Counted from the first letter of the whole stretch, positions 1 through 59,237 are shown. The stretch is DNA of 63,964 nucleotides, filler included, from an uncultured Methanoregulaceae archaeon (GCA_964530035.1; 3 parts of 3 records of this genome joined end to end with filler, not necessarily neighbours in it), one strand, 5' to 3'. The notes: generated by a model from the letters alone, not told the origin. A program made the numbers and translations.

Positions 1-289
1 TGTTATCCGGGTTTATTTTTCTCACTTTTTCTGACCTTGGCGAGGTTTTTACCCTCTTAAAAGGCCGTGAGACCGCCGCCGGGGCGCCCTTCGGGGGCGT
101 GGGGGTATGCCCCCACTGAAGATGTGATGCATATAGGATATCGGGAAACGAGAGGCTACGGTTATTTGGCACGGTCTGCATGCATTCAAAAACGCCTGAA
201 AAATTTCAGATCCCGTTTCTTCAATCACGCAGATTACCTGACAATAATGTCCGGTAAGGAAGAATTATTCGTTAAAATTGAGATTTTTT
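1..289. repeat. Partial copy of a hairpin-rich interspersed (MITE-like) repeat
   Basis: 63-280 aligns by eye with 29335-29571. Shared blocks are GGCCGTGAGACC, GGGCGCCCTTCGGGGGCG, GCCCCCACTGA, CAGATTACCTG and an identical 23-mer GGAAGAATTATTCGTTAAAATTG (258-280 = 29549-29571). Confidence 0.75.
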
Positions 290-385
290 GGCTTTGTTGA
301 AATCCTCCACATCTTCAATTTTATTCACCCCTTTATGAGAGGTTTCCTTCAGCGGCGATTCTGATCAGGGGGTTTCAACAAAGCC
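290..385. mobile_element. 96-bp miniature element with 16-bp terminal inverted repeats
   Basis: GGCTTTGTTGAAATCC (290-305) and GGGTTTCAACAAAGCC (370-385) are 15/16 inverted. The left part resembles 29045-29100. Confidence 0.6.
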
Positions 386-402
386 TAAAACCGTTTTATT
401 CG

Positions 403-29044: not shown

Positions 29045-29587
29045 GGCCTTTTTGAAACCCTTTTCATCCTCGATTTTATTCACCCCATTATAAGAGATCT
29101 CCCTTGCCTACAATTCCAATCATTGGATTTATAAGAGCCCATTTTTTTGTTTCCACCTCGAACATAGAGAGGATTCAAGAGATGATAACCGGGGGGCTGC
29201 TGCCCCCCAAACCCCCTGCATATGATAGCCATGGCAAGCCGTTGGTGATTATTTTTTCAGGGTTGTTTGGGGTATGTTTTTGTTGATTTTTGAGTCTTCA
29301 GCAAGATTTTTTTCGGTTCTCAATCAAATAGAAGGGCCGTGAGACCACCGCCAGGGCGCCCTTCGGGGGCGGCAGGGTATCTTTCCAGGAAGTGGGGGCG
29401 AAGCCCCCACTGATGACCTGATGTTTCTCATGTTTCGGGGGAGGTGATGTTACTGGTATCCGGTAAGGTCGGGAAACGTCCTGAAAGGTCAAAAAATACA
29501 GATCCATTTCTTCAATCAGGCAGATTACCTGGCAATTATGTCAGGCAGGGAAGAATTATTCGTTAAAATTGGGCTTTGTTGAAACCC
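29045..29587. mobile_element. About 540-bp non-coding MITE-like repeat
   Basis: Starts with GGCCTTTTTGAAACCC and ends at GGCTTTGTTGAAACCC. Internal GC hairpins. Homologous to 1-385. No transposase. Confidence 0.6.
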
Positions 29588-47483: not shown

Positions 47484-47537
47484 ACGGGACACACATCTTT
47501 ATCGCTGAACAGGGGCGACCGTACCGTGACCTTTTGC

Positions 47538-48674
47538 ATGACACAAAAATATATCGCAGCGGCCTTATTCCTCCTCCTGCTCATCCCCTGCGGGACCTTT
47601 GCTGCATCGCAGGCGGCGGGAATGGGAGAGAACAGGACCACGCCACTCACCGTAAACTTCTTCTGGGACCATAACTGCGAGGAATGNNNNNNNNNNGAAT
47701 GCCTGAAAACCCTCCCCTTCATGACGGACTACGCGGAACGGCACCCCGGGGTCAGGGTGGAGTTCTGGGACATCTCGAGCAACTGGTCCTACCGGCAGAT
47801 GTTCGAGGATTACAAGTCGTCGTTTAACACCCCGTATACCGGGGTGCCCTCTGTCTTCATCGACGACGTCCAGATTGAAGGGTCGGACAACATCGAAAAG
47901 TACATCGATACCGTGACCGATGCAATCCTCTCGAACACGACCGTCCCGGTGATTTCAGTCACCCCTGTCCCAACAGAAAAACCGGCTGTCATCAACCAGG
48001 CCCCGGCCATGAACCCCCTGCTCCTCCTTGTTGCAGCCCTTGGTGAGGGAGCAAACCCCTGCGGACTCCTTGTCCTTGCCCTCCTCCTCGTGTCGCTCAT
48101 GGCGTCCGGTTCACGGAGGACGGTCTTCCTCGTGGGGACCTCGTTCGTCGTGTCATTTTTCGTGGTGCGGCTCCTATCAGGTTTCGCCCTCTTTTCCGTC
48201 ATCCAGATGCCAGGAGTATCCAGGGCTTTTGCCATTGCCGCGGGTATCATAGCCCTTGTTTTCGGTATCATCCAGATCAAGGACGGCCTTGCCGGGCGAA
48301 AGGGCGTCCTTTCAATTCCCGAATCGAAAAAAGGTCTTTTCGCAGGCTATATCGCGAAAGCGAGTGTCCCGGCAGGAATAATCCTTGGAGTCCTGACAGG
48401 CATCTACGGGATGGCATGCACGGCCGGGATCTACATCGCCATCCTGGGGATGCTCGGGAACAGCGTTACCGCGGGAACTGGTCTGGTGTATCTTGTGGTC
48501 TACAACCTGATCGTCGTCATACCCCTGATCGCCATCGTGCTCCTGGTGTTCTTCGGGCTTTCCGCGGAAAAACTGAGTGGATGGCGAGAGGAGCAGAAGG
48601 GCTTTCTCCGCATCATTGTAGGCGTCATCATGGTCATCATGGGGATTTATCTCCTGGTAACCAGGCTGTTGTGA
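47538..48674 (+). CDS. Thioredoxin/glutaredoxin-like domain fused to CcdA/DsbD-type membrane domain
   Basis: Signal peptide. CEEC is obtained by collapsing the duplicated GAATG across the N gap. GVPSVFI, then TM domain with NPC and ACTAGIY. Confidence 0.8.
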   Translation: MTQKYIAAALFLLLLIPCGTFAASQAAGMGENRTTPLTVNFFWDHNCEEXXXXECLKTLPFMTDYAERHPGVRVEFWDISSNWSYRQMFEDYKSSFNTPYTGVPSVFIDDVQIEGSDNIEKYIDTVTDAILSNTTVPVISVTPVPTEKPAVINQAPAMNPLLLLVAALGEGANPCGLLVLALLLVSLMASGSRRTVFLVGTSFVVSFFVVRLLSGFALFSVIQMPGVSRAFAIAAGIIALVFGIIQIKDGLAGRKGVLSIPESKKGLFAGYIAKASVPAGIILGVLTGIYGMACTAGIYIAILGMLGNSVTAGTGLVYLVVYNLIVVIPLIAIVLLVFFGLSAEKLSGWREEQKGFLRIIVGVIMVIMGIYLLVTRLL

Positions 48675-49107: not shown

Positions 49108-50361
49108 ATGGAGAGTAGTGAGGCCCGGGAACCTGAACTTCAGGGAATGCTCCGGAGCAGTCCCAGGACCCCTGGAATGGTGCGGGCCTTCTGCCGGGAT
49201 TACTTTTTCTCGCGGAAAAACGGCTTTGAACTACTGGATGCCCCGGACCCCTTTCTGGCATGGCTTATCAGCCTGCTCCATGGGAGCCCAGTCCCCGCAC
49301 CCGACTTTTCGGACGAAACCTGGAGTTCTCTTCTGGCACTGCTCGCGCCTCACGGGGTCCTGGCGTATCTGTCTCATCTGGTCTCACAGGCACCTCATGA
49401 CAGCCGCCCGCCGGGTTTCATTGTCGAAAAACTGAAACACAGCTATATCTGGAGCAGCTATCACACCGAACACGCCCTGAAACAGTCTGCGGAGGTCTGT
49501 GCCTCCTGCAGGGAGGAAGGGGTGAACGTTCTGGTCATGAAAAGCCCTGCCATCGGTCTTGCAGTATATCCCAACGCCGCATTACGGACCGGGGGCGACA
49601 TTGACGTCCTGGTCTCGCCTGACCAGTATGAAACCTGTAAAAAAGTCCTCCTTGAGCAGGGGTACGAGCTCCGGTACGATACCTTCAGGGTCATGCCGGA
49701 GTTCTACCATCATGCCTGCTATTTTCCCCCCGATGAACCATACAAGGTGATTGAACTCCACTGGCGCCCCGTATTTCTCCCGGGGCCGGGTGATAGTGTA
49801 TCTGCCAGGGACCTCCTGGCCAGGTCCGGTCCACTACCGACCCGGTACGGGGAAATCAGGGCTTTTGACCCGGTTGATGCCTTTTTCTACTGTGCAATCC
49901 ACATGAGCCTCTTTCATGAGCCGGTGCTGCGGCTCTCGTGGGTCTGTGACATCACCCGTTTTGCCGATGAAATAACCCGACGCGGGGTATGGCCTGATGT
50001 GCTCAGGCGCAGCACGGAATGGCAGGGGAGAAGCGCTGCCGAACGTGCCAGCGGGCTTGCAGGCCAGTGGACAGGACTGCAACTACCGGAGAAGTACGAC
50101 TTTTCATCCTGGCCCGTCCAGGGGGACAATGAAATCTTTGCACAAGAACACATGGAGAGGAGACGGGCAGGAAAGGAGTTTCTCCTCAACCAGATACTCG
50201 CGAGGACTCCAAAGATTCGAAACAAGGTGCGGGCTACGTACCACTGGATGTTCAGGCCTGACCTTATCCATGACGGCAACCCGGGACTGTCCAGGTGGAA
50301 ATACCCATCGGCGTATGCACGACAGTTTTATTCCAATTTTAGGCAGATACGATGGGAATGA
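49108..50361 (+). CDS. Nucleotidyltransferase family protein (NTP_transf_5-like)
   Basis: MKSPAIGLAVYP..LRTGGDIDVLV (DxD), IELHW, H..LRLSWVCD. Confidence 0.85.
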   Translation: MESSEAREPELQGMLRSSPRTPGMVRAFCRDYFFSRKNGFELLDAPDPFLAWLISLLHGSPVPAPDFSDETWSSLLALLAPHGVLAYLSHLVSQAPHDSRPPGFIVEKLKHSYIWSSYHTEHALKQSAEVCASCREEGVNVLVMKSPAIGLAVYPNAALRTGGDIDVLVSPDQYETCKKVLLEQGYELRYDTFRVMPEFYHHACYFPPDEPYKVIELHWRPVFLPGPGDSVSARDLLARSGPLPTRYGEIRAFDPVDAFFYCAIHMSLFHEPVLRLSWVCDITRFADEITRRGVWPDVLRRSTEWQGRSAAERASGLAGQWTGLQLPEKYDFSSWPVQGDNEIFAQEHMERRRAGKEFLLNQILARTPKIRNKVRATYHWMFRPDLIHDGNPGLSRWKYPSAYARQFYSNFRQIRWE

Positions 50362-50455
50362 CCGGTTCCGGTTATCATACAACCAATCATCCGGGTTCAT
50401 CCTCTCGATCGAAAAGAGCCGGGTAAGGATTAAATCGTATATGAAAAGGCAATTT

Positions 50456-50761
50456 TCAGGCCCTGACTACCATGTTCCTCTTTGCGAGTTCTTCAACGAT
50501 ACCAAGCACGTCTTTTTCGATTTGTCCAGAAGGGTCATCGAATTCTTCCCGGAGGTCGGATGCAACCTCACCCAACCTTTTTTTTCCGTCGAGTTTTGAC
50601 CAGATGGCCCTGCCCGTTTCATTCAACGTGTAAATCTCGTCCTCCATGTCACCGATGCCGGAGGTAATCGGGATGAGAATAAACTCGCCCATAATCTCCC
50701 GGGCTACGAGATCTTCAGAAGGAAGGAAACAGTCATCGGGGGTCGGTCCGTGGTATTCCAT
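50456..50761 (-). CDS. PqqD family RiPP recognition element (stand-alone RRE)
   Basis: VAREIMGEFILIP..IYTLNETGRAIWSKLDG..L.EEF...IEKDV..VEEL. Confidence 0.92.
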   Translation of the reverse strand: MEYHGPTPDDCFLPSEDLVAREIMGEFILIPITSGIGDMEDEIYTLNETGRAIWSKLDGKKRLGEVASDLREEFDDPSGQIEKDVLGIVEELAKRNMVVRA

Positions 50762-51036
50762 GACAACATTCCATGGGTGTTTTCAGGTCATGAGGGTTTC
50801 CCGTAATGGCGTTGCATGCGGTGACAGTTAGGGAATACCCCGGTTGAGCCCACCCGGGACACGAATCCCTGTTTTAGGGGCAGGTTTACGAAGGCTGCCC
50901 CTTCACTTGACCAGGCACTCTTAAAGGAATTTCAATTCTGTTTGTACGCTGGCTGTAAAAAGAAAAGATGAATGCTCTGTCTTAACTTCGTGCCACAACA
51001 TGGCTGGAACGGCGCGTCCCAAGAACTTTTTTTCTC

Positions 51037-51210
51037 TTATGATGTGGTTACCCCGGAGCAATCCGGACAATCCTGTCCGACGCCGCGGCATACATCCACA
51101 TCATTGCTCGGGCCGCTCATGGCACCCCCTTTGCAGACTGCCAACACCAGTTCCTCCCGCGTTCCTCTCACAAGAACCGTCAGCTCAGGTCTTGTCCATT
51201 CCCTTTTCAT
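51037..51210 (-). CDS. Putative RiPP precursor peptide (57 aa)
   Basis: GGTGA RBS just upstream of the ATG. Sequence MKREWTRPELTVLVRGTREELVLAVCKGGAMSGPSNDVDVCRGVGQDCPDCSGVTTS. Lies between a radical SAM gene and PqqD. Confidence 0.85.
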   Translation of the reverse strand: MKREWTRPELTVLVRGTREELVLAVCKGGAMSGPSNDVDVCRGVGQDCPDCSGVTTS

Positions 51211-51236
51211 GATCACCAAATACCAAAGAGCAATAT

Positions 51237-52448
51237 TTATACTTTTCTGGAGAGCCTGAATAACTTGGTCCTGTTTTCCCAGTCATTAACTTCATAGGCC
51301 ATCTCCCCATCCTTCAGCAGGCCAAGATCCAGGGCCCTGGCGTGGGCTACCCGGCAGAGGTAATCTACAGGGGTGTCAAGGGTCCCGTTTTCAGTATATG
51401 ACCTGGCAGGACATTGTCCGCAAAGGCTTTTAATGAAACACCGGGCGCACCGTCTGAGATACTCTGGGTTTTTTGCCTTTTTCATACGTATTTTTGGAAA
51501 GAAATCTGTGATTGCATCACGAAACGTTCCCTTGGCAAGGTCATAAACCATTTCGGGGTCCCTGAGCATAAGACATGGCTGTAACCTGCCGTATGCATCA
51601 ACACATGGACGGGACCCTGCTCCACAGGAAAAGAGATCGTCTCCGGGCGGGCTTAAGAATTTCCGGATGAATTGCTTCATCTCGGCAAGATACCGCTCCC
51701 TGTCGAGGGAAAGGGCCGCTATGACATCGCTTGGGGGAAGCCGGAGTTTCTCAATAACCCCGTTTTTCGCAGGAAAATCCCGGCGGCAGCGCAGGTCAAG
51801 CGTTACAACAAAGTTCGGAGGACTTGCCATCGATGGAATTTTTACAGCCCATTTTATGAGTTCAGCGGCTTCGCTGGCATTCTGGGGCAGGACAACTCCT
51901 TTTACCACGAACGGAACTTTCCTGTCTGCAAGGAGCTCCAGTCCCCTCATGAATTCGTTATACGAACCCTTGACAAGGGATACCGTCTCATACGACTCCC
52001 GGGTCATTCCATAGACCGTTATCTCGATATCTTCACGAGGTGGCACCCGTGCCAGGAGATCTGCAATGGCTGGTGTAATAAGCCTGGCATTGGTAAAAAT
52101 CGTCACTTTCAATCCCAGTTTCCGGGCGAAGAGGTAGAGTTCGGTAAAATCGTCCCGGAGAAGTGGTTCACCCCCCGTGAAACGTACCATGAGAGCTCCC
52201 AGTTCTGCTGCGTCCGCTAGGATGCTTTTCAGTTGCACAGTGGACGATTCCCTCCGGGCAGCTTCATCATCTTCCGCGAGGTTGATACAGCAGTGGATGC
52301 ACCTGTTGTTGCACCGCTCGGTCAATTCAATATCAAAACGCGTGAGCAAGGGTCGATTCCCTCTCCAGATACGATAACCCGTTCTGTCAACGACCCTTGC
52401 ATAATGAGGCGGACTCGTACCGGACATTTCTTCTCCGTTAAGAGTCAT
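51237..52448 (-). CDS. Radical SAM/SPASM peptide maturase
   Basis: CNNRCIHC, TGGEPLLR, SPASM CGAG..QPC..CARCFIKSLCGQC..YLC. Confidence 0.93.
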   Translation of the reverse strand: MTLNGEEMSGTSPPHYARVVDRTGYRIWRGNRPLLTRFDIELTERCNNRCIHCCINLAEDDEAARRESSTVQLKSILADAAELGALMVRFTGGEPLLRDDFTELYLFARKLGLKVTIFTNARLITPAIADLLARVPPREDIEITVYGMTRESYETVSLVKGSYNEFMRGLELLADRKVPFVVKGVVLPQNASEAAELIKWAVKIPSMASPPNFVVTLDLRCRRDFPAKNGVIEKLRLPPSDVIAALSLDRERYLAEMKQFIRKFLSPPGDDLFSCGAGSRPCVDAYGRLQPCLMLRDPEMVYDLAKGTFRDAITDFFPKIRMKKAKNPEYLRRCARCFIKSLCGQCPARSYTENGTLDTPVDYLCRVAHARALDLGLLKDGEMAYEVNDWENRTKLFRLSRKV

Positions 52449-54405
52449 TAAGACAGTCTTTGACTATTTCTATTTCCTTGACGATAGTGCCACTCCTGTC
52501 AAAATCAAGAATAAAAAATGGGATTTTTCTTACAGTCTCTTCTAAAAGCGCAGTCGTCGTCTCCCACCAGTCTGGAGTAGCCATGGGCCTGATGATACAC
52601 CCGAGGAGATGCTTGAATGCAACCCCGGTTTCTTCCACACGCGTGATGCGGTTTTCTGCTGACTGCCTTAACAAAAAGACTGCGGCCAGGGGGGCAGAAG
52701 ATGAAGATATAAGGGGGATTTCCCCATGACACCAGCTGCCATAGACCCTGAATTCCTGGCCTTCTTTTCTGATAATGTTCCTATCGTCGCAAAGGACAGT
52801 TGCACTGTCCTTGAGCATCCTCGTAATTGTTGATTTTCCTGCCCCAGAATGCCCTATGAAAAGCAGACCTTTTCCATCAAGGATCACGCCAGCCGAATGG
52901 ACCATGCACGCCTCCCGGGTTGCAAGGATGCGGGCAAGGAGGACCTGGTCCGTGGGCAGCATCGTCAGGGAATGAAGACCGTATTTCAGGTAGTCCTCAC
53001 TGCCTGCATGGTAGAACTCGCCAACCGAGTGATCGTCATTGAAAATGGCAACGGTAAGAGGCGAATTATCACCTGCCGACGGGGATGTTAATACATAAAT
53101 CCAGCCTGCGCCTCTCCTGAAAATAATCCAGGGAGATTTCCGGTACACCTCGGTACCAAGGTTCCCGGCATCCAGGTGAGGCAATTCGAAATGGTGCCTG
53201 ATCGTGATGATGTCGTTTCCAGGGCCTGATACCTGGAATGTTTTGAACTTTGGGTCAAACGTTTTATCCGTAAAGGGGAGGTCTGATTCAACCTGGAGCG
53301 TTATGTTGGCTACCTGGAAATAGCGGCGACGGGTATTTACCCATTCCCTCTTTAAAGCTGCGGCTTCTCTTGCAATCCTGCAGAGATAATCAACCCTGGA
53401 CCCGTAAGTGCCATTTTCAAGGTAACTGTATACCGCACACCACCGACAGACATCTCGCATTGAACAAAACTGGCATGTTTCTGCATACTCATGTCCCCCC
53501 CTGATTTTATCCGCGAGTGATGGGATGAAAGTCTCCCAGGCTTCTTTTATGGTCCCCGATCGGAGGTCGTACCGCATCGCCGGGTCCTTGATATAACTGC
53601 AGAAGGACATTGCCCCATAGGGGTCGATATGAAATGCTTTCCTTAATCCGATGCAAACTGCAAAAAGACGGTCATCCTTTTTTTGCGCCTCATCAAGCGC
53701 CCTGTAGCCATAACGTTCCTCGAATGAAAAGTCAGGTGTGTCCAGTTTGAGAACCCAATCAGGGTCAAGTCTCTGCGTTTGGATTTCGGCATTCCTTGCA
53801 GGCGAACCTGATGAAGACATGAATAACCACGGTGCACCGATCCGCCAGTGAGGGCTCAATGACTCTGCCAGTCTCACCATGTCGTCGTACTGGTGACAGT
53901 TGTCCTTCATTGCAACGATTTGGACTATGAACCCCGCCCCGGCCTCTTTTAGCATCGAAAACCCTTTCATCATCGCATCAAACGAACCAGGTCGCCGGGT
54001 GATATGGTCATGGACATTGGCCGTCGCTCCGTACATAGAGACCATTTTGGTCCCCTTTCTCTTCATGAGACGGGCAATTTCAGGGGTGATGAGTGTCCCA
54101 TTCGTATTGAGTGAGTAGGAAGCCGACCTGTCGGTGATATATTCAAACAACTCCGGGAAGTCCGGCCGGAGCATGGGTTCGCCTCCTGATATCTCCCACT
54201 TACGGCACCCCATTGCCCTTGCCTGGTCAACGATATCCTTGATTTCTTCCGTCGTAAGCTTCTTCGCCGGCTCGGTATCCCCTGAGGGCTCCTTGAGCCA
54301 GCAGTGGCGGCAGTTGTTGTTACAGCGGTAGGTAAGGTCTATTCTTCCCTTCAACGGTAATCGTGGAACAACGGGAACTTTTCGGTAATTGATATAACCT
54401 GGCAT
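52438..54405 (-). CDS. Radical SAM/SPASM maturase fused to a C-terminal HPr-kinase-like P-loop domain
   Basis: CNNNCRHC, SGGEPMLR, CQFCSMRDVCRWC..YLC, then VHSAGV..GHSGAGKST..CDDR. Start placed after a GGAGG RBS. Confidence 0.9.
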   Translation of the reverse strand: MPGYINYRKVPVVPRLPLKGRIDLTYRCNNNCRHCWLKEPSGDTEPAKKLTTEEIKDIVDQARAMGCRKWEISGGEPMLRPDFPELFEYITDRSASYSLNTNGTLITPEIARLMKRKGTKMVSMYGATANVHDHITRRPGSFDAMMKGFSMLKEAGAGFIVQIVAMKDNCHQYDDMVRLAESLSPHWRIGAPWLFMSSSGSPARNAEIQTQRLDPDWVLKLDTPDFSFEERYGYRALDEAQKKDDRLFAVCIGLRKAFHIDPYGAMSFCSYIKDPAMRYDLRSGTIKEAWETFIPSLADKIRGGHEYAETCQFCSMRDVCRWCAVYSYLENGTYGSRVDYLCRIAREAAALKREWVNTRRRYFQVANITLQVESDLPFTDKTFDPKFKTFQVSGPGNDIITIRHHFELPHLDAGNLGTEVYRKSPWIIFRRGAGWIYVLTSPSAGDNSPLTVAIFNDDHSVGEFYHAGSEDYLKYGLHSLTMLPTDQVLLARILATREACMVHSAGVILDGKGLLFIGHSGAGKSTITRMLKDSATVLCDDRNIIRKEGQEFRVYGSWCHGEIPLISSSSAPLAAVFLLRQSAENRITRVEETGVAFKHLLGCIIRPMATPDWWETTTALLEETVRKIPFFILDFDRSGTIVKEIEIVKDCLNDS

Positions 54406-54488
54406 TACGCCTCCGGGTGTGCAGGATCCATGAAACCCAATCATATCAGCAGGGGTTTCTTACCAGCCTTATCAGGAAATAGTGAGAA

Positions 54489-55643
54489 TTAAACGTTTCC
54501 ATCCTTCCGTGGTGAAGTGCGCAGCCTTTCCCCATGCCCGGCGGCAAGGGCCCGGGCATGTGCAACCTGGCAGAAGTATTCCACCTGGCAGTCGAGGAAC
54601 CCTGTTTCAAGATCAGCATGGGCAGGGCACCACATACACAGGTCTGTGATCGGGCAACCGTTACAGGTGTCCCGAAATCCTTTCCTCTCTGACTGCATGG
54701 AACGGACGCCGGGGATGAAGTTTTCTATTGCATCGGCAACAGTTCCCGACCCGAGGTCGTACACACATTCCTTATGGCAGAGCGACGGGCAAAGCCACAA
54801 TTTTCCGTCATAACTAACAAAAAAATTTCCCATTCCCGTGCCACATCGGAAAAGGCGGTTGCCGGATCTCTTGTCTGATCGCTGGAGACGAAGTTCATCA
54901 CACCGTTTTTCGAGTGCACGGAACCGTTCAGGGTCTGATTGCTCAAGTTCAACGATTTCGCCAGGGCTCAGCCGTTCCTGCCGGATCTCTTCGTTCCTCG
55001 CTGGGTCATGGTCGACCCTCAGGTGGAGTTGTGGGTCAAAACGATAGTAATCAGCAGTCCTTTCACGGCAAAATACCGCGATTTCTTTCATCTCGTGGAG
55101 GTTCGAACGGAGGGCCATTGCCTTGAGCCGTACTTTAATTCCTTTCCCAAGAAGGAGGTCCAGGCCGCGCATGAAGGCGTCGTACGACCCGGCCCTCCTG
55201 GTAACGGCCTCGTAGGTTTCCCGTGTCACGCCGTACACCGTGATTTCAAGGTCCCGTGGAGGATATTTTTTGAACAGGTCTGCATACCTCTCATTCACCA
55301 GGGTACCGTTGGTCAGCACGGAGACCAGGAGACCTTTCTTCTTAAGACCCAGGTAAATATCCTTGAAATCAGGTCTCAGCAACGGTTCACCCCCGGTAAG
55401 GACGCACCATATGGCACCTGCCTCAGCGGCCTGCCCGGCTATTTCTAGGATCCTGCTGGCGGGCAGTTCGTTCCTCATCGCCTCCACATCGTTCGCCGGG
55501 AGGTTGACAAAACAGTGGCGGCAGTTGTTGTTGCACCTTGGAGTAATCTCGATGGTGAAGGATATGACGGAACCCGCCCCTTTCATGTCACCCCAGAGGG
55601 GCAGGGCCGGAAGTTTCTCCTGGTGCGAATAGCTGTCTTTCAT
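54489..55643 (-). CDS. Radical SAM/SPASM peptide maturase
   Basis: CNNNCRHC, TGGEPLLR, CGTG..LC..CNGCPITDLCMWC..YFC. Confidence 0.93.
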   Translation of the reverse strand: MKDSYSHQEKLPALPLWGDMKGAGSVISFTIEITPRCNNNCRHCFVNLPANDVEAMRNELPASRILEIAGQAAEAGAIWCVLTGGEPLLRPDFKDIYLGLKKKGLLVSVLTNGTLVNERYADLFKKYPPRDLEITVYGVTRETYEAVTRRAGSYDAFMRGLDLLLGKGIKVRLKAMALRSNLHEMKEIAVFCRERTADYYRFDPQLHLRVDHDPARNEEIRQERLSPGEIVELEQSDPERFRALEKRCDELRLQRSDKRSGNRLFRCGTGMGNFFVSYDGKLWLCPSLCHKECVYDLGSGTVADAIENFIPGVRSMQSERKGFRDTCNGCPITDLCMWCPAHADLETGFLDCQVEYFCQVAHARALAAGHGERLRTSPRKDGNV

Positions 55644-56704
55644 TGCCGCGTCCCCTCCTTTTTACAGGATAAATGCATTGTAATCCTTCGTTTACCTGTT
55701 TCCTGGTACTCCCGCTCCAGAGTATCTTCAAGACCCGGGCAGGTGGTCATTTCAAAACCCAGCTTCCTGTAAAGCCGTATTGCTGGTTCATTTGTTTCGT
55801 CCACAAGGAGAGAAACCCCTTCGGTACCCTCACTCCATGCCCCGGCCAGTGCATGTTGTATGAGCAGTTCTCCGACACCCATGCCTCTGCACGGGAGTAT
55901 CACCATTAGACTGGATATCCAGGTACCTGCATACGGACCTGATGATGCCGGATAGGTTGCAAGGTCGATGGAACCAATCTCCTTCATGCACATTGCAGCC
56001 GTGAAACGGGTCAGCCTGAAAGGAACGGCGTTTGAGTCAGCCAGGGGAGTATTGCCGATGCCTGCAGGTAGTGTCGCCCTGCCTGGGTCTGCCTGGACGA
56101 CAACCAGGCCCCATTTACGCGTGACCGTTCTCATAGTCCGCCTGTAAGCCGCNNNNNNNNNNTGCGCGAGGAACGCTCCCTTTCCACAGACCATGGCCAG
56201 GGTGCGTACCGGCCTCAATATCGGCTTCAGGAGGGAATGCCTGCTAAGAAACGCGATTATCCGCCTACCTGAGCGGGTACCCATCCCGTGTCTTCCACGG
56301 CCACGCTCCACGCACGTGACAATGCCGAGTATCCTGTCTGCCGGGATAAGGCCGTCTGGTTTATCAGCATTATCTCCCCGGATGAGGAAGGAGTCACTGT
56401 TCACCGCGACTACCCTGTGGACCACGAGGCGTCCCGTCTCCGGGTGGTGGAATGCGACAACATCCCCAAGCGCCGGGTGACCTGGGGAAACAGGAGAAAC
56501 GGTTATGGTGTCGCCGTCAAGGATGGAAGGGTACATGCTATGGCCGGGAGCCCTGAAACGGAAGGGTTTCTTCTGGTCCACGACCGCCTTAAGCAGTTCA
56601 AGTCGTAATGCCGGAGAAAGAGACCCCTCCTCGCCTGTCCGGATATAGCGGCTCCCCTGGGACGATGGCAGCGGCTCTCCACCTGTTATCATTGATACCA
56701 CCAT
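55640..56704 (-). CDS. S24/S26 peptidase domain plus C-terminal GNAT acetyltransferase (N gap between the domains)
   Basis: GHSMYPSILDGD, GDVVAF, VVHRV, RGDN. Then RGMGVGELL and NEPAIRLYRKLGF. Confidence 0.8.
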   Translation of the reverse strand: MVVSMITGGEPLPSSQGSRYIRTGEEGSLSPALRLELLKAVVDQKKPFRFRAPGHSMYPSILDGDTITVSPVSPGHPALGDVVAFHHPETGRLVVHRVVAVNSDSFLIRGDNADKPDGLIPADRILGIVTCVERGRGRHGMGTRSGRRIIAFLSRHSLLKPILRPVRTLAMVCGKGAFLAXXXXAAYRRTMRTVTRKWGLVVVQADPGRATLPAGIGNTPLADSNAVPFRLTRFTAAMCMKEIGSIDLATYPASSGPYAGTWISSLMVILPCRGMGVGELLIQHALAGAWSEGTEGVSLLVDETNEPAIRLYRKLGFEMTTCPGLEDTLEREYQETGKRRITMHLSCKKEGTRQ

Positions 56705-56834: not shown

Positions 56835-59237
56835 TCATGCCGCACTGACGGTTAAACCGTTCTGAATGTCCGACTCGGCAACCCTGAAAGAAATGCTCTG
56901 GTTCAGAAGGAGGTATGGACCTAAGGCCCGTACCCCCCCATTGGAGGCTTCAGTGGCATAGGGGACGATGAACTCGCCGTTCGAACTTTCCTGGGTATAG
57001 GTGAACCTCCGGCCGGCATTTGTCTCAAGGGGCACCTGGATCACACCTGAACCATTTATCCTGGCCCCCTTCACGAATTCAAAAATCTTGACCTGCCGGA
57101 TATCCCGTCCCGAAGATGCATATGCCGTTTCAGGGGACTCGTAGACCAGCCTGAAACGGGTGAGCGCCGGGACCACTGCGGTACTATTGACATAGTCCCG
57201 GCTGAAGAGGCCTGATTGTACACCCTGGGCCGGAGAGGTATTTCTCGACTCCATGAATGCGTCAACATCCTGGTATTGCATGGTCCTGATGAATATGACG
57301 GGTGGATTGACCGTTTCCGGCACTGTTGACTGGTATTCAACATAGTCCACCTCGCCGGGAACCTGCAATTCGCCGTCGAAGAGGTGGAGCCGTGATACCA
57401 TGGTCTGGTGGAATGCCGGGCTGAGAAATGGCACTGGTCTTTGAACCCCTTTTTCCTGCCCGACCCGGGCAGTCAAGAAGGTGATGTATGGTGATGTCAC
57501 GTTCACCGGGTCCTGGTAGGTCGCAACCGCCCAGAATTTTGAGGAAACAAGGTCAAAATCGGTGATTACATACCTCGAACCCTCCTTTTCAAGGACGTGG
57601 GTGGCGGTTTTCTCGTCCCGGGCAAGGAGAAATGCCGGAGCACCGTATTTCCCCCGTAAGCCCTCCTGGAACGGGTTCGTGTTCGGGATCCGGTGCGCCA
57701 GGAAGGTGATCATGTGCCCGTAGTCCCACCATGACATGATGCCGTATGCCCGGGAGGGATAGGAAAACCGGTCTTCAGAATACAACACATAATACCCGAC
57801 ACCCGTATCCGGTGTGTTTGACTGCAGCCAGTCCATGGCCCCTGACCACCCTGCAGGAGGGACGGGGGGCGAAAGGTGGAGGTCTGACCATATGGCAGTC
57901 CCTGTGAAGCATACACCGAGTAGAATCACGAGGATGAACCGGGACTCCTTCCCTGTGACAGGTTGGTGACGGTCCTTCCGAACCGGCTTTCCTTCATGCC
58001 TCCTCCGCCTCACACCATCGACTGGCCCGGATGCTGATAGCCTTTTTTCTCCCCCGGGTGCCTGTGCCCACCCGGGTCTTCCGGACGTGACAGCCCAACT
58101 TATCGGGAGGGCTGCGATGACGGCGAAAGGGGCCCCAAGGAGGTATTCATACCTGCCGTGCATGAGTGACATGACCAGGAGAAGAATCCCCCAGAGGAGG
58201 CAGAGGAGATCCGGCGGGTGCCGGTCTTTCCATACTCTCATGATGAGAACGATGAACCCGCCGAGGAGGAGGAACAGGCCGAACTGGTACGTGGAAAGGA
58301 GGTCGATGAAACCCATCGGACGCGCTTCAACGACGGTTACCGCAAAAACCTTCTGGCCGAACGCCTCCATGAGCCCGTTGACCGCCGTGTTGTAGAGTGA
58401 GGGAACGGCAAAGGCTGAAATGATGACTGCCCCTCCACCCAGCACGAGGAGAACAACCGGGTAGAGAATAAAGGGCTTTTTTTCAAGCACCCTGCTGAGG
58501 AGGCAGAGCCCACCTGTCCCGAGGATGATGAGCATGAAGGCAAGCGGGTGTCCCATCGAGTAAAAGGTGAGGAGAAAGGATTGCGGGACGCGGATGTAGC
58601 ATAGTGACCCCAGAAGGGCGCACCCGAAGACACAGGCATTGATCGCGACCAGGTACAGGAAATCGCGTCTGGCGTGGAAATCGAGGACTGACTGGACTAC
58701 GGTAAAAACTGCTGCCAGGAATGCGAATATGATGAATGTGGGCATCGTCAGGTACCCGGCGACATAGACGGAACCACAGATCAGCGAGAGGATAAGGACT
58801 TTCCGGGTGTCCTTGGGCTGATCTGGATTTTTATGTGAGTTTGATGCAGAACGGAGCGCTGACAGGTAACAGAGGACGAAAGCACAGCCGAACAGGGCTT
58901 CGGCCACGTGATGGTCAATCACCCCGAATGACGATGTTGCGAAAAAGTTCCCCGGCATCACGGCGATAAAAAGGGCAGCGGTCATCCCGCAGACCCAGTC
59001 ACCGAGGGATTTTCCGATGAGGTAGGTAAGCGGGACAAGGAGTGCTGCAAGGAGAGGTGGTACAAGGACTGCAGTTCCTATTATCTCCTGGCGGGTGACT
59101 GCACCTGATATGAGGCAGGAGAAGGTGACAATGGATGCAAAGACCGGGCCCCAGTTCACATAAGTCCCATAGGGGAAGAACGTCATCGGGTCATAGGTCG
59201 TGTAGGAAGGGAACCCTGGCAGCATGAATTCAACCTG
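56835..59237 (-). CDS. aglB: Archaeal oligosaccharyltransferase (STT3 family), 5' truncated at contig end
   Basis: YDPMTFFPYG, DHHVAE, TVVEA, SWWDYGH, NPFQEG, many TMs. Confidence 0.93.
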   Translation of the reverse strand, partial: QVEFMLPGFPSYTTYDPMTFFPYGTYVNWGPVFASIVTFSCLISGAVTRQEIIGTAVLVPPLLAALLVPLTYLIGKSLGDWVCGMTAALFIAVMPGNFFATSSFGVIDHHVAEALFGCAFVLCYLSALRSASNSHKNPDQPKDTRKVLILSLICGSVYVAGYLTMPTFIIFAFLAAVFTVVQSVLDFHARRDFLYLVAINACVFGCALLGSLCYIRVPQSFLLTFYSMGHPLAFMLIILGTGGLCLLSRVLEKKPFILYPVVLLVLGGGAVIISAFAVPSLYNTAVNGLMEAFGQKVFAVTVVEARPMGFIDLLSTYQFGLFLLLGGFIVLIMRVWKDRHPPDLLCLLWGILLLVMSLMHGRYEYLLGAPFAVIAALPISWAVTSGRPGWAQAPGGEKRLSASGPVDGVRRRRHEGKPVRKDRHQPVTGKESRFILVILLGVCFTGTAIWSDLHLSPPVPPAGWSGAMDWLQSNTPDTGVGYYVLYSEDRFSYPSRAYGIMSWWDYGHMITFLAHRIPNTNPFQEGLRGKYGAPAFLLARDEKTATHVLEKEGSRYVITDFDLVSSKFWAVATYQDPVNVTSPYITFLTARVGQEKGVQRPVPFLSPAFHQTMVSRLHLFDGELQVPGEVDYVEYQSTVPETVNPPVIFIRTMQYQDVDAFMESRNTSPAQGVQSGLFSRDYVNSTAVVPALTRFRLVYESPETAYASSGRDIRQVKIFEFVKGARINGSGVIQVPLETNAGRRFTYTQESSNGEFIVPYATEASNGGVRALGPYLLLNQSISFRVAESDIQNGLTVSAA

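Follow-up and report, generated by a model that had tools for sequence, protein, structure and literature searches.

The lppA-K-B-S-D-N cluster of Paenibacillus alginolyticus (LPP; PMC13381572, Nat Commun 2026) is described as encoding a peptide-tailoring kit that comprises a RiPP recognition element (RRE; RiPP, a ribosomally made peptide with post-translational modifications), a signal-peptidase-like protease, an HprK-like kinase, and an NTP transferase. The same parts occur, together with three radical S-adenosylmethionine (SAM)/SPASM enzymes (rSAM1, rSAM2, and rSAM3), in the gene cluster examined here, which lies at positions 49108–56704 of a 63,964-nucleotide window from an uncultured Methanoregulaceae archaeon (GCA_964530035.1; genome G000). 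The window is the whole stretch of DNA that was analyzed and consists of three contigs end to end; the cluster is located on contig C7. From these genes and their relatives, we propose, with somewhat more belief than doubt, a pathway whose peptide product is cross-linked by thioethers, phosphorylated at its tail, decorated further, and exported.

The likeness to LPP extends to a [Y/W]xxPx[L] leader, a hydrophobic residue at −3, and a split between W and Y leaders in neighboring pathways, and LPP clusters are frequently found beside a lasso cluster and glycan genes, as here (PMC13381572). LPP and paeninodin clusters are reported in capsule loci (PMC13381572). The protease LppS (S29/H68/D93) depends on its RRE for leader cleavage and requires F−3; it shares Ser, His, and Asp with the archaeal peptidase, a likeness at the level of the motif (PMC13381572). 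The LPP kit also includes an MsbA-like exporter, whereas here the exporter is about 9 kb away, with one contig join inferred. LPP is described as having no cyclizing enzyme, and the main text of the report leaves radical SAM enzymes unmentioned; the term "Radical_SAM" is present a single time in its supplements, where it names one column of a neighbor-domain matrix, and "Methano" likewise a single time, in connection with an unrelated peptidase (PMC13381572). In contrast to LPP, the archaeal precursor has neither the leader YxxPxVLxHQxIxFETxxS nor the phosphosite at core Ser3, and of the two systems as described, only the archaeal one has a core patterned by Cys, a terminal Ser that is conserved, a fusion of kinase and radical SAM enzyme, an optional GNAT domain, and an archaeal host (PMC13381572).

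The lasso peptides paeninodin and pseudomycoidin (PadeK/ThcoK, PsmK, PsmN; PMC9266682, PMC6993621) resemble the cluster in their H-K-D-D kinase, C-terminal Ser, DxD nucleotidyltransferase, RRE, and WxxP leader. The initial annotation had likened the kinase and nucleotidyltransferase to lasso tailoring, and the corresponding motifs and a conserved C-terminal Ser were indeed found. The macrolactam cyclase and B2 protease of those systems are absent from this operon. Unlike a lasso precursor, the core opens with Cys-Lys and has no ring-forming Asp/Glu pattern; the 57-residue precursor gave no match to lasso precursor models, and the true lasso cluster is a separate neighbor with YxxP precursors.

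With CteB, AlbA, SkfB, PapB, and the methanogen CrpC, the archaeal enzymes share a radical SAM domain with a seven-Cys SPASM arrangement and a Cys-rich substrate behind an RRE-bound leader. They differ from sacti- and ranthipeptide maturases in having a stand-alone RRE, three dedicated paralogs, CxxC rather than CxxxC in the SPASM region, and an accompanying kit of kinase, transferase, and S26-type peptidase. None of the named maturase models was matched (StsB 85/625, AlbA 64/850, and PapB 60/340 for score against cut-off; SCIFF 20/425, on the C-terminal part of rSAM3). CrpC, a TIGR04463 member, is described as having a large repeat protein as its substrate and is of a different family from the cluster enzymes (PMC13692751). 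Judged by gene content, the joining of an LPP/lasso-type tailoring kit to a dedicated radical SAM/SPASM trio appears to be a new combination, unreported together. The cluster had been called uncharacterized, and we likewise found no description of the family in the literature outside subscription journals and bioRxiv supplements. It would represent an uncharacterized RiPP class whose members are frequent among uncultured anaerobes and also occur in methanogens.

Gene Content and the Precursor Family

The initial annotation proposed seven genes, and listing of open reading frames (ORFs) together with family scans recovered each of them in place:

49108..50361, plus strand: PF14907 (NTP_transf_5) nucleotidyltransferase-fold enzyme, with the Pfam-type role of PsmN/LppN (PF14907)
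50456..50761, minus strand: stand-alone PqqD/RRE (PF05402)
51037..51210, minus strand: 57-residue precursor peptide (translation, conserved family)
51237..52448, minus strand: rSAM3, a radical SAM/SPASM enzyme with CxxxCxxC (family scans, SPASM Cys alignment)
52438..54444, minus strand: rSAM2 fused to an HprK-like kinase (family scans, motif residues, fold search)
54489..55643, minus strand: rSAM1, a radical SAM/SPASM enzyme (family scans, SPASM Cys alignment)
55640..56704, minus strand: archaeal-type signal-peptidase-like domain, soluble, fused to a GNAT acyltransferase (PF00717, PF10502, PF00583)

As annotated, the nucleotidyltransferase gene converges on the minus-strand run, and the ATGA of the stop/start overlap at 55640–55643 is present in the sequence. 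A second overlap, at 52438–52448, exists only if rSAM3 begins at its first ATG; the database protein call (P0002) is 396 residues long, not 403, and the rSAM2/rSAM3 overlap may not be genuine. The host had been taken for a methanogen, in agreement with a C-terminal McrA fragment (E 1.6e-40) found where a contig of G000 ends; it falls below the whole-protein cut-off because it is incomplete. The names of homologs suggest Methanomicrobiales. Near-identical DNA occurs in anaerobic digester and sludge runs (14 strong matches, 13 of which may be source DNA); no RNA run was among those listed, and the one run of possible RNA origin was probably DNA. The G+C content of the cluster is 50–54% (50–56 kb), slightly under the 56% of the genome.

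The precursor consists of a leader, residues 1–25, with W5xxP8xL10, E19E20, and L23, and a predicted 32-residue core with the pattern C26-K27…G33-P34…C41…C48xxC51-x5-S57. An iterated profile seeded on the leader assembled a family of 98 unique peptides at 60 loci, drawn from 72 metagenome loci, 3 genome loci, and regions of archaeal and bacterial genomes; one broken ORF without a junction was removed, and one fragment and one read-through were kept among the 98. The family consensus is WxxPxLxVLxRxxPEExVLxxCK…GP…C…CxxC-x5-S, with a W/YxxPxL…L-x-x leader and a core that opens with Cys-Lys. Leu stands at −3 of Cys-Lys in 67/69 precursors, Lys directly follows the first Cys in 97/98, and Gly and Pro precede the second Cys at −8 and −7 in 50/95 and 35/95, respectively. 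Of the 98 peptides, 87 end in Ser and 6 in Thr (Ser/Thr end 14% of 1,663 long ORFs of G000), and six residues follow the last Cys in 76/98. Cores contain four Cys in 65/98 and three in 26/98; the remaining positions vary freely, with no conserved aromatic residue in the cores of the 98 peptides. Ser occupies core position 3 in 11/98 and position 4 in 12/98. A database search yielded 18 further family members, at least 2 of which duplicate the 98-peptide set; 15 of the 18 are Ser-ending.

The 57-residue peptide had no NCBIfam match at E ≤ 1, and 65 aligned precursors searched against NCBIfam gave nothing better than E 0.0044. G000, which is 86% complete, contains one copy, and no further copies were found in it. 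At L023:7318–14953, eleven precursor copies with near-identical leaders and divergent cores lie among the enzyme genes. The initial annotation had offered, as a test of itself, the possibility that homologous trios lack a conserved peptide; they are accompanied by this one, and by its conservation the 57-residue peptide is a genuine RiPP precursor. With radical SAM/SPASM enzymes, an RRE, and a conserved leader–core precursor all present, the earlier description of the cluster as a radical SAM RiPP system is supported.

Radical SAM Enzymes and the Fourth Cysteine

All three enzymes score 75–89 bits against PF04055 (cut-off 29.5), and their CxxxCxxC cysteines are invariant in 44 rSAM1, 31 rSAM2, and 51 rSAM3 orthologs. 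Each paralog also has seven conserved SPASM Cys, with CxxC replacing CxxxC, consistent with their annotation as SPASM enzymes, although against TIGR04085 (cut-off 27) only rSAM3 passes, at 35.6, with rSAM1 at 22.9 and rSAM2 at 21.6. In a quick tree of 66 of 162 rows, rSAM1, rSAM2, and rSAM3 form separate clades, each with 100% support in the Shimodaira–Hasegawa-like approximate likelihood ratio test and each spanning bacteria and archaea; joined by the versions from single-enzyme cassettes, they make up a single clade (99%) that is separate from ScmE, from ScmF, and from heme-synthesis-type enzymes. For rSAM3, 3201 of 8000 scored candidates had E ≤ 1e-30, paralogs included. Sequence searches of the PDB returned generic radical SAM matches, and the best hidden Markov model (HMM) scores were for the AhbD and MftC decarboxylases, far below cut-off. 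The lower-ranked metagenome loci encode heme-synthesis enzymes of the AhbC/D type, which fall in separate clades and have no precursor; these loci were set aside from the family and served as controls.

The number of core Cys follows the presence of rSAM2. Counting as a unit each locus, or each genome where loci were pooled, a precursor with at least four Cys occurs in 23/24 units with rSAM2, in 0/7 units with rSAM1, rSAM3, and a stand-alone kinase, and in 0/5 units with a single radical SAM enzyme. Among seven genomes checked genome-wide, three (G492, G797, and G830) lack an rSAM2 ortholog, and all their peptides are of the three-Cys kind. Both cassette types are present in G525 and in G853, where they lie on separate contigs and each has the corresponding peptide next to it, and the rSAM2 locus G525:C288, fetched after the correlation had been found, encodes a four-Cys peptide, as predicted. 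Since rSAM2 tracks the fourth Cys, we read Cys as the substrate, most simply for thioethers. The seven-Cys arrangement, with exactly seven SPASM Cys in rSAM2, is that of the thioether former CteB, which is reported to have an open Aux I site, whereas anSME and SuiB are fully ligated (PMC6231123). The correlation of enzyme with Cys is an observation; the predicted chemistry is probably one enzyme per internal Cys with thioether products. A known substrate and three enzymes with a predicted division of labor of one Cys each make this a precisely testable system.

In two loci (L124:8319–10280 and L128:4871–6826), the rSAM2–kinase fusion has no recognizable kinase motif and a separate intact kinase is encoded; the fused domains are possible pseudokinases.

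Kinase, PF14907 Enzyme, and the Terminal Serine

The kinase domain fused to rSAM2 has an HPr kinase/PEPCK fold (Z 11–13) and the residues H516, K537, and D553-D554, with His, Lys, and Asp kept in 32/32 homologs. The H-K-D-D motif is that described for lasso kinases acting on a C-terminal Ser (PMC9266682). The PF14907 enzyme (149.5 bits, cut-off 31.2) has a Pol-beta nucleotidyltransferase fold, with best VIA Z scores of 13.3 for MenT1 and 11.2 for ANT(2''); K145 and D164-x-D166 correspond to a Lys and DxD present in 15/15 cassette homologs. The fold search did not discriminate a LicD/FKRP-like role (FKRP Z 6.4). PDB sequence searches gave no significant match for the kinase or the transferase. 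PsmN, which also has DxD, is reported to be required for addition of a hexose to the phospho-Ser of pseudomycoidin (PMC6993621). After that requirement, and silence in LPP, the archaeal cluster offers a third setting in which to define the role of PF14907 enzymes.

One methanogen genus, represented by two genomes, has lost part of this arm and is informative. In G278 (98% complete), Walker A is broken, the PF14907 gene is absent, and four peptides end in E, R, D, and F; in its congener G513 (96% complete), Walker A is broken, no PF14907 match exceeds the cut-off, and the peptides end in A, D, and S. Thus 6/7 peptides of the two genomes have a non-Ser end, while Cys-x5-end is kept in 7/7, so that this spacing appears to serve the radical SAM arm. 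The co-loss links the kinase, the PF14907 enzyme, and the terminal Ser at the level of gene and peptide sequence, and such natural loss-of-function lineages already part the cross-linking arm from the phospho-tail arm. Among the genomes of the host's order, a PF14907-type gene (E ≤ 1e-30) occurs in 8/15 with rSAM3 and in 24/386 others. No PF14907 match over cut-off was found in G712, G476, or G492 (93%, 74%, and 75% complete), and G023 has only fragments.

RRE, Leader Peptidase, and GNAT Domain

The PqqD/RRE protein scores 59.2 against PF05402 (cut-off 23.4). A predicted complex of the RRE with the precursor reached 0.44, weak support, against 0.00 for the best control; this mark is reached by 116/157 solved complexes and 2/215 mismatches, and marks of ≤0.60 include just 18 of the 157 solved complexes and yet both mismatches. 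Repeated runs agree in 89% of contacts, with a partner pLDDT (predicted local distance difference test) of at least 48. As RRE and precursor are a textbook pair, the prediction may pass through likeness.

The peptidase–GNAT protein exceeds the cut-offs for PF00717, PF10502, and PF00583; the best match of the peptidase, TIGR02228, stays below its own (43.4, cut-off 51.85). The catalytic residues are S56, H96, and D111. Among 32 homologs, His and Asp are present in all, and the nucleophile is Ser in 27 and Cys in 5 (L019, L024, L028, L054, and L065). These Cys-type enzymes have a longer C-terminal region, for which no Pfam match was found at E ≤ 1e-4. The peptidase domain contains no hydrophobic stretch of transmembrane strength and is thus predicted to be soluble.

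The peptidase–GNAT ORF crosses a run of ten Ns at 56153–56162. Contigs of three public runs (X4, X6, and X13), which may be source DNA, bridge this run with a net change of −3 letters, so the reading frame is kept. Equal fusions occur in L017, L051, L059, and L064, and together with the in-frame bridging they rule out a scaffold artifact. Methyltransferase genes flank several cassettes (L019, L063, L124, L128, and L140).

Genes beyond the Contig End

Two further features adjoin the cluster:

56835..59225, minus strand: AglB/STT3 oligosaccharyltransferase paralog, adjacent and co-oriented, with its 5' end on contig C219 (TIGR04154)
G000 C219:492–2623, C180:1–4617, and C209:2450–3088 (L098–L100), directly past window position 59237: archaeal lasso cluster

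Over 148 nt, the end of C7 matches the beginning of C219 (82% identity). Public contigs carry the C219 letter at all 19 listed differences, and C7 is therefore taken to run on into C219. On C219 lie the 5' end of the AglB gene and, in divergent orientation, genes for a lasso RRE, B2, and cyclase. C180 contains the end of the cyclase, a lasso precursor of the YxxP type, a fusion of PRTase-like and PqqD domains, another HprK-like kinase, and an ATP-binding cassette (ABC) exporter that continues on C209. B2 scores 100 bits (cut-off 33), and the 60-residue YxxP precursor, with a core starting GGTGVYND, matches NF033521 (28.5, cut-off 19). A cyclase this close occurs in 3/151 family genomes. Two RiPP pathways, one with W and one with Y leaders, are thus neighbors in an archaeon. 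A second, possibly broken precursor-like ORF lies at L098:3891–3989.

The initial annotation saw no exporter and suggested an intracellular product or cofactor. That absence is true within the window only: an MsbA-like ABC exporter lies about 9 kb off, in the lasso half of the island, and is 45% identical to exporters inside cassettes L051 and L058. ABC exporters also lie within the bacterial and archaeal cassette copies of L023, L028, L031, G098, G532, and G492. The notion that the system has no exporter is, on this evidence from gene neighborhoods, probably wrong.

The AglB paralog scores 653 against TIGR04154 (cut-off 450) with intact WWDYG, DHH, and TVVE motifs, and with those of G035 and G474 forms a clade of 100% support, apart from seven other AglB rows. 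It adjoins RiPP tailoring genes in four genomes (G000, G035, and G474; lasso genes in G001). In G474 the AglB paralog is followed by lasso genes, ABC, Scm-like genes, peptidase, and a transferase (56% identical to that of G000); in G035 a transferase (56%) is followed by ABC, RRE, and the AglB paralog, with no cyclase and with the radical SAM trio on another contig. Transferase orthologs at least 56% identical were found only in G000, G035, and G474 among 401 genomes. The arrangement is suggestive of a link between AglB and the cluster, and a role in the pathway is only possible. If the link is functional, RiPP biosynthesis would be tied to protein glycosylation.

Surface-glycan genes lie near 12/18 loci of one bacterial phylum, 4/13 metagenome loci, and 2/12 archaeal trio loci, as opposed to 0/10 heme-synthesis control loci and 3/91 large contigs of G000; because the markers were chosen among the test loci, the control is biased toward low values. 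The glycan link is suggestive and not obligatory. In one bacterial phylum the cassette lies beside genes for YjbH, Wzc, and an undecaprenyl-phosphate sugar transferase. Bacterial cassettes (L062, L066, L125, L127, and L137) often adjoin very large peptidase C25 (gingipain-like) proteins.

Distribution and Relation to SynChlorMet

Orthologs of rSAM3 occur in 15/401 genomes of the host's order, 5/401 of its phylum and, at a lower threshold, 22/151 genomes of one bacterial phylum; the cluster is thus not specific to archaea. The only sampled congener of the host, G001 (77% complete), has no rSAM3 match.

SynChlorMet cassettes comprise PqqD, several radical SAM/SPASM paralogs, and an HprK-like ScmC (TIGR04248–04251). 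All three parts are common to our cluster, which had been likened to such a cassette with HMM searches suggested as the check. The four models score far below cut-off (ScmD 28.9/100, ScmE 72.9/400, ScmF 99.3/400, and ScmC 33.6/125), whereas in G098 a true Scm cassette, which adjoins an orthologous trio and was used as positive control, passes all of them (137, 594, 568, and 260). Membership in SynChlorMet or GeoRSP was rejected on these cut-offs. In the quick tree, the cluster enzymes do not group with ScmE or ScmF, whose clades are separate, and by these comparisons the cluster is a sister of SynChlorMet, not a member.

SynChlorMet or similar cassettes lie beside the trio or a lasso cluster at L094:6279–12155 (G098), L105:2636–8163 (G474), and L096:4680–14112 (G278); they adjoin the trio in G098 and G278, and in G098 and G474 they are followed by the same peptidase and PF14907 genes. 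The cassette in G278 is followed by NHLM-type ABC exporters. From these gene orders, methanogens appear to build RiPP islands around a shared peptidase and PF14907 kit.

Proposed Pathway and Alternatives

In the proposed pathway, the stand-alone RRE would bind the WxxPxL leader, by analogy with LPP and lasso biochemistry. Each radical SAM/SPASM enzyme would join one internal Cys to a carbon of another residue, with a loss of 2 Da each and 6 Da in total; rSAM2 would handle the extra Cys, C48, and rSAM1 and rSAM3 would handle C41 and C51. Alpha-carbon (sactionine-type) links are favored because the non-Cys core positions vary freely. The fused kinase would phosphorylate Ser57, possibly several times, as PadeK and PsmK suggest and the co-loss supports, and the PF14907 enzyme would cap the phosphate with a nucleoside monophosphate or bring about glycosylation, on the precedent of PsmN. 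The S26-like protease, guided by the RRE as for LppS, would cut after L-x-x and free an N-terminal Cys26-Lys27, and the optional GNAT domain might acylate the new N-terminus or Lys27. The MsbA-like ABC exporter past the AglB paralog would then export the product. On the same island, a lasso pathway would use YxxP leaders and its own RRE, as opposed to WxxP here; such a W/Y split separates two RiPP pathways in Bacillota.

Several observations weigh against this proposal. The precursor profile is derived from its own matches and may favor Ser-ending peptides. The count relating rSAM2 to the fourth Cys leaves out 20 unclear and 2 mixed units, one rSAM2 unit (L110) has only a three-Cys peptide, and among the 54 peptides of rSAM2 units 4 carry three Cys. 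A Fisher p of 3e-6 exaggerates the association, as several units without rSAM2 come from one bacterial phylum and are kin rather than independent. An eighth conserved Cys in rSAM1 (C248, 43/44) and rSAM3 (C282, 33/51) could fill Aux I, as in C–C formers and dehydrogenases. The fold search cannot name the reaction, as anSME, SkfB, SuiB, ChlB, and CteB all score Z 19.6–22.3. For the tail arm, G278 and G513 belong to one genus and have near-identical peptides, representing one lineage rather than two events, and one G513 peptide still ends in Ser. G669 has an intact kinase motif and a Ser-ending peptide, yet no PF14907 match over cut-off; its cluster looks decayed, with split radical SAM genes. 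LppK, the closest characterized kinase in a peptidase-led pathway, is reported to target core Ser3 rather than the terminus, and LppN is described as without activity (PMC13381572). The exporter is part of the island's lasso half and might serve the lasso peptide only, and the join of C219 to C180 follows from G001 and G474, where the genes are contiguous, and not from an overlap.

The same genes could serve a pathway in which the radical SAM enzymes make non-thioether changes, such as C–C or C–N links at Lys27 or the Gly-Pro turn, epimerization, or C-terminal oxidation, which we consider unlikely. The Cys would then stay free for disulfides or for binding of a metal or Fe–S cluster, which the CxxC/CxxxC spacing would fit. 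Conservation of Lys after the first Cys (97/98) and of Gly and Pro before the second (50/95 and 35/95), the eighth Cys of rSAM1 and rSAM3, and the top, though far below cut-off, HMM scores for the AhbD and MftC decarboxylases agree with such chemistry. However, one added enzyme, rSAM2, accompanies one added Cys, which is simplest if Cys is the substrate; the cores have no conserved aromatic residue, and terminal decarboxylation would be hard to reconcile with a kinase dependent on a terminal Ser. An intracellular product or cofactor akin to PQQ or mycofactocin, trimmed to a small core and never exported, appears very improbable. The operon of G000 has no transporter, several archaeal copies lie among metabolic genes, and G000 has a single precursor copy, but the family's cores are hypervariable, with up to 11 copies per locus (L023), which is not known for cofactor precursors. 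ABC exporters inside many cassette copies, a patchy distribution (15/401 genomes of the order), and the lack of a recurring dependent oxidoreductase among the scanned neighbors also argue against it.

Decoration of the cell surface would give the thioether-cross-linked, tail-phosphorylated peptide another destination, one that we judge distinctly doubtful: the PF14907 enzyme would form a phosphodiester between the phospho-Ser tail and a sugar or a lipid-linked glycan, the MsbA-like ABC protein would flip the conjugate, and Wzy/Wzc systems in bacteria, or the dedicated AglB paralog here, would place it on surface polymers. The frequency of glycan genes near bacterial-phylum (12/18) and metagenome (4/13) loci over controls (0/10) and G000 contigs (3/91) is consistent with this, as are the AglB clade beside RRE, ABC, and PF14907 genes in G000, G035, and G474 and beside lasso genes in G001, the capsule setting of LPP and paeninodin clusters (PMC13381572), and the PsmN-dependent hexose (PMC6993621). 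However, only 2/12 archaeal trio loci have such genes nearby, the markers were drawn from the test loci, the trio of G035 is on a different contig from its AglB/PF14907 module, the precursor contains no N-x-S/T sequon, and FKRP, a nucleotidyltransferase-fold enzyme that forms phosphodiesters, reaches only Z 6.4. Islands are often inserted close to glycan loci with no coupling of function. A fuller version, in which AglB transfers a triply cross-linked, surface-displayed peptide carried on a glycan via phospho-Ser and the kit is a general anchor for lasso, LPP, SynChlorMet, and radical SAM scaffolds, has a similarly small chance of being correct. If surface display is true, RiPPs would be substituents of S-layer or capsule glycans, which would explain clusters in polysaccharide loci.

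Additional Features of the Window

Promoter and terminator scans gave results at chance (7 vs 6.9 and 12 vs 10.9) with a bacterial consensus, and a search of a plasmid collection gave no match at E ≤ 1e-25. A 382-residue ORF at 47526–48674 encodes a thioredoxin-like CxxC region and several hydrophobic segments and has no Pfam or NCBIfam match at E ≤ 0.01; it crosses an N run, and public contigs close this gap with 15 fewer letters. The last ~180 nt of C7 (window 59058–59237) show 28 listed differences from contigs of three public runs, and this assembly end seems to derive from another strain or AglB paralog. Two contig ends, at window 1–390 and 29065–29581, have 76–98% matches on ~10 other contigs and are probably repeated or mobile elements that broke the assembly.

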